This document shows, piece by piece, positions 30,041 through 30,194 of a stretch of DNA of 57,518 nt. This DNA is from a virus. Taxonomy: Duplodnaviria; Heunggongvirae; Uroviricota; Caudoviricetes. Both the position numbers and the translations under genes were made by a program. The stretch is from IMG/VR virus record IMGVR_UViG_2861048470_000006. One strand, 5' to 3'. The notes below the pieces were generated by a model. The model saw only the letters and a program-made list of their open reading frames with translations, had not been told where the DNA came from and made no database searches. Positions within the stretch are counted from its first letter, which is position 1. Each line of letters starts with the position of its first letter.

Positions 30041-30115
30041 TGGAGCGGGTAGCGGGAATCGAACCCGCATCATCAGCTTGGAAGGCTGAGGTAATAGCCA
30101 TTATACGATACCCGC
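30041..30115 (-). tRNA. tRNA-Gly (anticodon UCC)
   Basis: 75-nt sequence GCGGGTATCG...CCTTCCAAG...CCGCTCCA folds as cloverleaf; resembles host glyT with a compensatory acceptor-stem change; coordinates +/-2. Confidence 0.85.
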
Positions 30116-30118
30116 ATA

Positions 30119-30194
30119 TGGTGCCGACTACCGGAATCGAACTGGTGACCTACTGATTACAAGTCAGTTGCTCTGCCTGCTGAGCTAAGTCGGC
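30119..30194 (-). tRNA. tRNA-Thr (anticodon UGU)
   Basis: 76-nt sequence GCCGACTTAGCTCAG...CTTGTAA...GGCACCA; resembles host thrU; 3 nt from tRNA-Gly; coordinates +/-2. Confidence 0.85.

Follow-up and report, generated by a model that had tools for sequence, protein, structure and literature searches.

A tRNA-Thr(UGU)-tRNA-Gly(UCC) pair in a lambdoid prophage of Escherichia coli, probably the two-gene form of a modular phage tRNA array

In the sequence record of the Shiga toxin (Stx) phage 933W, the late antiterminator gene Q is followed by pR', qut, two terminators, a putative promoter pT, the tRNA genes ileZ, argN and argO, a terminator, stxAB and, further on, the lysis genes S and R; the putative pT lies 9 nt before ileZ. 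The T4-like phage RB27 carries a cluster of tRNAs for Gly (UCC), Thr (UGU), CAU, Arg (UCU) and Leu (UAA), separated by spacers of 1-10 nt. In the bacterial host, thrU and glyT are single-copy genes, and their order in E. coli K-12 is thrU - 8 nt - tyrU - 116 nt - glyT - 6 nt - thrT - tufB. Here we examine a pair of tRNA genes, tRNA-Thr(UGU) and tRNA-Gly(UCC), found in the IMG/VR virus record IMGVR_UViG_2861048470_000006. The whole stretch of 57,518 nucleotides, referred to below as the window, is a 100% match to the chromosome of E. coli strain 120899, the element that hosts the pair is a lambdoid prophage, and RefSeq labels the two genes tRNA-Thr and tRNA-Gly in this strain. Comparison of sequences makes it very probable, in our judgement, that phages maintain the pair as a functional tRNA cassette in the lambdoid late-regulatory region, where it represents the two-gene form of a modular array made of ileZ-like (CAU), argN-like, Thr (UGU) and Gly (UCC) genes.

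Two tRNAs and no others were called by ARAGORN in the whole window. Both are on the minus strand and both have an encoded CCA end: tRNA-Thr(UGU) of thrU type at 30119..30194 (Rfam 69.8 bits, E 3e-13) and tRNA-Gly(UCC) of glyT type at 30041..30115 (65.6 bits, E 5e-12). Between them lies a spacer of 3 nt, TAT on the coding strand (30116..30118). Both genes clear the gathering score of the Rfam tRNA model (RF00005; 29 bits), and since the same model gives similar scores to host thrU (73.8 bits) and glyT (64.9 bits), neither prophage gene looks like a pseudogene. A preliminary description of this DNA, made from the letters alone, had named the two tRNAs, their distance of 3 nt and their location on the late-gene strand; all of this is borne out by ARAGORN, and the Rfam scores, equal to the host-gene level, leave no sign of the decay that would have spoken against functional genes.

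The mature prophage tRNAs are 97.4% identical to the host genes, with two differences per gene. The Gly copy shares 73 of 75 positions with K-12 glyT, and its sole changes, C6U and G66A in linear numbering, fall together in the canonical acceptor-stem pair 6:67, which is C-G in the host gene and U-A in the prophage. This swap, named in the preliminary description, is thus confirmed by alignment. The Thr copy shares 74 of 76 positions with K-12 thrU and differs only by U16C and U20C in the D-loop, two changes that had previously been missed. Positions 16 and 20 we take to be the usual dihydrouridine sites, so the C16/C20 allele would lack those modifications. Anticodon stem-loops of both tRNAs are those of host thrU and glyT. 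Glycyl-tRNA synthetase (GlyRS) recognizes U73, G1:C72, C2:G71, G3:C70, C35 and C36, and threonyl-tRNA synthetase (ThrRS) recognizes G1:C72, C2:G71, G35 and U36; upon inspection of the sequences, every one of these bases proved to be retained in the respective prophage tRNA.

Next, we compared the locus with the host operon, whose gene order had been correctly given in the preliminary description (tyrU between thrU and glyT, thrT next). When the host locus (1164 nt) was compared with the window by BLAST, the two mature tRNAs were the only matches; no remnants of tyrU, thrT, the intergenic spacer or tufB were detected, and similarity ceases at the mature tRNA boundaries. A transduced host fragment, which a flanking piece of tyrU would have betrayed, is therefore ruled out by the lack of any host flank in the window. 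The three bases of the spacer do agree with host flanks: T is the base following host thrU and AT are the last two bases before host glyT, an agreement expected by chance in 1/64 of cases. This fits a pair that arose when tyrU, together with its spacer, was cleanly deleted from the enterobacterial thrU-tyrU-glyT-thrT operon, and is suggestive only; subsequent spread among lambdoid phages would have proceeded by mosaic recombination.

A 55-mer spanning the Thr-Gly junction, which cannot match the host locus, served as a probe for the pair. It was found in 875 of 5426 complete E. coli genomes (~16%), at 1064 places and at most five per genome, and PGAP annotation at these places reads tRNA-Thr followed by tRNA-Gly. 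Among species-representative genomes, the junction is present in E. coli, Shigella flexneri, E. albertii, E. ruysiae, Citrobacter braakii and Enterobacter hormaechei. It also occurs on a 423-nt contig of coverage 0.67 in the assembly of the myxobacterium Corallococcus exercitus, almost certainly as enterobacterial contamination. Deposited phage sequences contain the pair as well. The Stx phage phi467 has the order stxA-stxB-Thr-Gly-S-R, the LT-IIb prophage fragment SerU-LTIIb (methylase-tRNAs-holin1-holin2-endolysin-eltIIb) reproduces the architecture of the window with the pair duplicated, and JLK-2012, vB_EcoS-683R6 and PhiR47_1 carry it too. Full-text literature searches, for the pair and for the 933W tRNA gene names, found no paper specifically devoted to the Thr-Gly pair; the documentation found consists of sequence records. 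The pair is in any case an already annotated and common phage tRNA cassette of known kind, and it will not surprise a specialist.

A pattern scan of IMG/VR yielded at least 120 loci, with 117 complete viral copies among the matches listed; the counts of viral loci and copies given below refer to these matches. At ~120 loci the orientation of the module is constant: rusA/Q upstream and the holin downstream are on its strand, irrespective of what intervenes. ARAGORN found the Thr-Gly pair alone at 48 loci, the array CAU - 1 nt - UUU - 2 nt - Thr - 3 nt - Gly at at least 36 and CAU - 1 nt - UCU - 2 nt - Thr - 3 nt - Gly at 14. On at least 60 viral contigs, and not in the window, Thr-Gly is fused behind a copy of ileZ and an argN-like tRNA. 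In these four-gene arrays the first tRNA matches 933W ileZ with 96% identity and is preceded by the same pT sequence, while the second is 79-81% identical to argN and differs in its anticodon. Jointly the arrays read AUA, AGA/AAA, ACA and GGA, all of them A-ending codons. Judged by gene content and similarity, they show that the ileZ-argN-argO cassette of Stx phages belongs, as one variant, to a wider family of modular arrays. Anticodons vary further in some members: the argN-like tRNA carries UCU, UUU, UAA, AAA or odd loops depending on the viral locus, and the Thr scaffold bears UCU in copy 1 of SerU-LTIIb, where the gene is annotated as tRNA-Arg, and in two viral contigs UUU.

Conservation of the module coincides with the tRNAs themselves. 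In a 91-sequence MAFFT alignment, identity to the window is 0.94-1.00 within the tRNAs and 0.2-0.6 in the flanks, the drop coinciding precisely with the mature ends. Of the 117 copies, 113 have TAT as their spacer. For tRNA-Thr, 72 copies (62%) are identical to host thrU and 21 have the C16/C20 allele of the window, with C16-only and C20-only intermediates also in existence. For tRNA-Gly, 51 copies (44%) are identical to host glyT and 34 have the U6-A67 allele, to which its derivatives must be added; U6·G67 intermediates are found in four copies and a C6·A67 mismatch in one. Two viral Gly copies have insertions in the anticodon arm and have probably decayed or acquired an insert.

When the 20 distinct Gly alleles are compared, pairing is retained in 93.6% of stem cells, and the anticodon stem-loop shows no variation. 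Pair 6:67 is C-G in nine alleles, U-A in eight and U·G in two, and the T-stem pair 48:64 alternates between G-C and A-U, so that two pairs have changed on both sides. On this allelic evidence, U6-A67 is a real compensatory polymorphism inside a conserved module. Since about 44% of the viral Gly copies are host-identical, it does not set phage copies apart as a fixed mark. Thr and Gly alleles occur in all four possible pairings and have therefore been shuffled by recombination or gene conversion. We infer that, as alleles of the module, U6-A67 and C16/C20 are neutral or close to it.

Sequences surrounding the pair suggest a transcription unit of its own. Upstream of tRNA-Thr, scanning revealed a sigma-70-type promoter-like site on the minus strand (30256..30283), TTGAAA-16 nt-TAATAT with 9/12 matches, followed by a G+C-rich discriminator, CGGTACCC. 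A discriminator rich in G+C is a feature of stable-RNA promoters. We propose this site as a candidate dedicated tRNA promoter, analogous to 933W pT, which is itself termed putative. In the two-gene arrays, a site of the form TTGAAA/TTGCGA/TTGAAT-16-TATTAT/TATCAT/TAATAT ends 60-68 nt before tRNA-Thr, in leaders that are otherwise diverged; in the four-gene arrays, a TTGCAA-17-TATTAT site ends 9 nt before the first tRNA. Folding of the window sequence placed a minus-strand leader hairpin, closed by GGUUCC...GGAACC, at 30198..30247, its end being 3 nt from the tRNA-Thr 5' end. The closing helix, GGUUCY/RGAACC, is kept in 19 diverged leaders, with two-sided changes (C-G/U-A, G-C/A-U) at 4 of 9 pairs. 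In all two-gene arrays, a conserved promoter position and the leader hairpin precede tRNA-Thr.

On the other side of the pair, the terminator scan detected a strong minus-strand intrinsic terminator, AACCGCCGTTCCGGGCGGTT followed by U8 (29655..29682), whose stem and U-run are invariant in 27 homologues. It likely ends the unit of tRNAs and small RNA (sRNA; see below) for polymerase not modified by Q. A second strong minus-strand terminator is located downstream at 29333..29318. Taken as a whole, the tRNA unit has the appearance of an autonomous moron, through which Q-modified late transcription would also be able to pass.

We then turned to codon usage. According to the codon-compensation model, codons cognate to phage tRNAs should be commoner in phage than in host genes (Bailly-Bechet et al. 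2007, as cited in PMC7946995). Annotated coding sequences of the same strain were compared, comprising 20,656 host codons, 3,980 codons of late prophage genes and 2,027 codons of early/nin genes. ACA accounts for 11.7% of Thr codons in the host, 11.3% in late genes (odds ratio (OR) 0.96) and 30.6% in early/nin genes (OR 3.3, p = 2e-6). GGA accounts for 12.7% of Gly codons in the host, 14.9% in late genes (OR 1.2, p = 0.31) and 20.8% in early/nin genes (OR 1.8, p = 0.02). AUA and AGA are also enriched in early/nin genes, about threefold. Codon compensation for the late genes is thus not supported (ACA OR 0.96; GGA OR 1.2, not significant). The comparison with the host that the preliminary description had proposed fails for late structural genes and succeeds only for early/nin genes, in which both codons are enriched. 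A codon-supplementation model remains plausible, and weaker than commonly assumed.

Several of these observations weigh against a functional, phage-maintained cassette. Viral copies equal the host sequence in 62% of cases for thrU and 44% for glyT, and because so many are host-identical, part of the conservation could stem from host gene conversion and not from phage selection. The tRNA promoter is a consensus match only. The late structural genes, which account for the bulk of phage protein synthesis, have no excess of ACA and an insignificant one of GGA, so a codon-compensation benefit for virion production is unsupported. Finally, the prophage in the window is defective, and any benefit in the lytic cycle is therefore moot for this particular copy; its terminase gene is split by an IS66-family element (ISCro1, window ~21690-24305), and copies of IS3 and IS100 are present in the early region.

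The host-identical alleles, the late genes without ACA or GGA excess and the defective prophage would also suit a neutral hitch-hiker, a piece of the host operon captured once, of no benefit to the phage and kept host-like by recurrent gene conversion from thrU and glyT; the presence of all four Thr/Gly allele combinations, pointing to recombination, agrees with this as well. We nevertheless consider such an explanation improbable. The tyrU-less junction and the fixed 3-nt spacer are common to more than 1000 copies residing in very different flanks. Compensatory changes occur in the non-host alleles, and gene conversion would erase such changes, not create them. The promoter-like site is kept at a fixed position before diverged leaders, and T4-like phages have assembled the same anticodon set independently. 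The fixed TAT, tRNA bodies conserved in contrast to their flanks, two compensatory pairs and the invariant anticodon stem-loop all favour a functional set maintained by phages over a captured fragment, as had been surmised in the preliminary description.

For the functional cassette, the anatomy of the locus would predict the following course of events. The dedicated sigma-70 promoter would drive synthesis of a precursor consisting of leader hairpin, Thr and Gly, and Q-modified late transcription arriving from upstream would also read through the cassette. RNase P would cleave the 5' end of each tRNA, and 3' exonucleases would trim the 3-nt spacer to the encoded CCA. Because all known identity elements are kept, the prophage tRNAs should be charged by host ThrRS and GlyRS. 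The effect would be extra copies of two minor single-gene isoacceptors, the only efficient readers of ACA and GGA, with tRNA gene dosage rising as the phage genome replicates. The early, nin and moron genes, which are AT-richer, over-use A-ending codons, and decoding of these might be eased in this way.

Phage tRNAs have been reported to counter anticodon nucleases, for example the tRNAs of T5 in connection with PARIS or PrrC-type systems, and tRNA-Lys is the classical target of anticodon nucleases. By analogy, phage copies might replace or outnumber tRNA-Thr(UGU) and tRNA-Gly(UCC) cut or depleted by a toxin or nuclease, with C16/C20 and U6-A67 aiding escape. Beyond the reports themselves, this proposal can draw on the UUU (Lys) anticodon that related arrays carry on the argN-like scaffold and on the variant positions, which fall outside the identity elements. 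We find it most improbable. The anticodon stem-loops are those of the host and invariant over the 20 Gly alleles, which leaves no escape by sequence and the counter-defence role unsupported; about half of the copies are fully host-identical; and we know of no nuclease that targets the Thr(UGU)/Gly(UCC) pair specifically. Beside the pair, PADLOC finds the methyltransferase and no other defence match. As for the sister arrays, whose Thr scaffold can bear UCU or UUU and whose argN-like scaffold can bear UUU, UAA or AAA, a less likely extension of the "stable-RNA moron" reading given below would be that these anticodon-switched tRNAs have been neo-functionalised against tRNA-targeting defences.

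Directly after tRNA-Gly, a highly structured non-coding region of 401 nt (29640..30040, minus strand) with no coding sequence in RefSeq was detected. Its minimum free energy is -159 kcal/mol versus -110 ± 5.6 for shuffled sequences (z = -8.7), and the minus-strand RNA is much more stable than the plus-strand RNA (-159 versus -114). Alignment of the window with 26 further distinct sequences, 73-99% identical to it, supports 78 consensus pairs, 14 of them with compensatory changes, and ends in the invariant terminator. No Rfam family covers the 401-nt region at gathering threshold. In a permissive Rfam search, the 3' half (29852..29653) spans the whole STnc100 model with 19.9 bits, below the gathering score of 47; the other candidates of this search were dismissed as miRNA-like hairpin noise.

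STnc100 is related to the Hfq-bound PasD sRNAs, which are encoded in prophages of enteropathogenic E. coli (EPEC) just upstream of holin genes (bioRxiv 10.64898/2026.05.13.724894; PMC8550237). The region in the window shares with them its position between the Q region and the holin, a closing helix round several hairpins, the GGGAGGCACCC hairpin and the terminal terminator, and differs in its match of 19.9 bits, short of the gathering score of 47. BLAST of PasA, PasD1 and PasD2 of E2348/69 against the window gave no similarity. Taking these traits together, the 401-nt region is probably a divergent member of the STnc100/PasD sRNA family and is possibly co-transcribed with the tRNAs. In the preprint just cited, tRNA matches were frequent beside pasA and pasC and were read as prophage integration hot spots (bioRxiv 10.64898/2026.05.13.724894). 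The loci described here suggest that many of these matches are phage-borne tRNA genes of the Q-to-holin region.

This arrangement raises the question whether the tRNAs are mainly processing handles in a tRNA-sRNA operon, in which RNase P and 3' trimming would free and define the downstream STnc100/PasD-like RNA. Such a role would account for a conserved structured region of ~400 nt that reaches from tRNA-Gly to a strong terminator and holds no annotated coding sequence, for its resemblance to STnc100, whose PasD relatives precede holin genes, and for the tRNA matches beside pasA and pasC. In RB27, rnaD and rnaC likewise stand directly after the tRNA cluster, and sRNAs derived from host tRNA spacers are another parallel. 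However, prophages of E2348/69 type carry the structured region without adjacent tRNAs, about half of the Thr-Gly loci have a different sequence downstream of the pair, and a terminator-like U-run ~125 nt past tRNA-Gly could stop tRNA transcripts earlier. The operon is moreover compatible with a decoding function and not exclusive of it. As the principal role of the tRNAs we therefore regard it as quite improbable. Somewhat more room, still on the unlikely side, may be left for a broader analogy in which the Thr-Gly array, instead of being a decoding aid in the first place, is the 5' part of an autonomous "stable-RNA moron" composed of a stringent-type promoter, leader hairpin, two tRNAs, a covarying STnc100/PasD-related RNA of ~350 nt and a terminator. 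Processing of the tRNAs would here set the 5' end of the downstream RNA, as for rnaC and rnaD in T4, and the tRNA matches adjacent to pas genes would be arrays of this sort.

The pair lies between a methyltransferase on one side and holin genes on the other. Immediately upstream is an N6/N4 DNA methyltransferase gene (30363..31409, minus strand; RefSeq; Pfam PF01555, E 5e-45), and Q (33500..33862, minus strand; PF06530, E 1e-43) is located 3.3 kb upstream. Downstream, two holin genes (28633..29293, minus strand; RefSeq; PF16931 and PF05449) start the lysis cassette. One strand is common to the tRNA pair, Q, a small winged helix-turn-helix (wHTH) gene, the methyltransferase, the two holins, GH108 endolysin, nohD/terminase and the head and tail genes. 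Right behind the Q stop codon stands a terminator (33470..33497) with a perfect 12-bp palindrome, and scanning of the sequence 3' of Q revealed no convincing pR' promoter between Q and a convergent gene, orf427. This gene (427 aa, 32010..33293, plus strand) has a very low G+C content at third codon positions (0.33) and is convergent with the 72-aa wHTH gene (31559-31777, minus strand) and the type II DNA methyltransferase. The layout of the three genes resembles a restriction-modification moron placed between Q and the tRNAs; when a tRNA-nuclease or defence identity was sought for orf427 in Pfam, PADLOC, NCBIfam and PDB sequences, no match was obtained. Elsewhere in the window, Rfam detected the sok antitoxin RNA (35870-36044, minus strand, 110 bits), adjoining hokD, and the DicF sRNA (52708-52759, plus strand, 76.7 bits), both typical for Qin-like prophages. 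Non-phage cargo inside the prophage is represented by a BCCT transporter gene, a DUF2254 gene and a ParA-family gene.

In ~16% of complete E. coli genomes, the only efficient readers of ACA and GGA, each normally encoded by a single gene, have between one and five additional intact gene copies. This matters for estimates of translation efficiency that are based on tRNA gene copy number, for the question whether thrU and glyT are essential and for how suppressor or anticodon-shifted tRNAs evolve. Practical value of the finding is modest, for it adds no new kind of element and opens no long-standing question.

Compared with the systems mentioned at the beginning, the prophage pair shares with the host thrU-tyrU-glyT-thrT-tufB operon the order of Thr before Gly and, in TAT, the host flanking bases. 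It differs in having no tyrU, 116-nt spacer, thrT, tufB or host promoter region, and in that Thr and Gly are joined 3 nt apart inside the late region of a prophage. With the anti-defence tRNAs of T5 type, as known from the literature, it has in common that phages encode copies of host isoacceptors; the anticodon-loop changes that define those tRNAs are absent here, the stem-loops being those of the host. The likeness to RB27 is broader. The anticodon set of its cluster is that seen across the lambdoid arrays, its spacers of 1-10 nt imply polycistronic precursors, and small stable structured RNAs, rnaD and rnaC, are found right behind the tRNAs. In contrast to the lambdoid pair, the tRNAs of T4-like phages have diverged from those of the host (~80% match), belong to a virulent phage and do not derive from the thrU operon.

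The ileZ-argN-argO cassette of 933W occupies the same slot on the same strand, past Q/pR' and before the toxin and lysis genes, and the assertion of the preliminary description that Stx phages keep their tRNAs in this place agrees with the 933W record, where they are situated between Q and the lysis genes. In both cases we see a compact array which reads A-ending or rare codons and has its own putative promoter, pT in 933W, in front. The Thr-Gly arrays contain Thr (UGU) and Gly (UCC) in place of the Arg genes and have spacers of 1-3 nt, as opposed to 9-13 nt in 933W. Thr and Gly are near-identical to host genes, in contrast to argN and argO, for which the host has no close counterpart, and the two-gene form present in the window is further distinguished by another promoter and a 60-nt leader hairpin.

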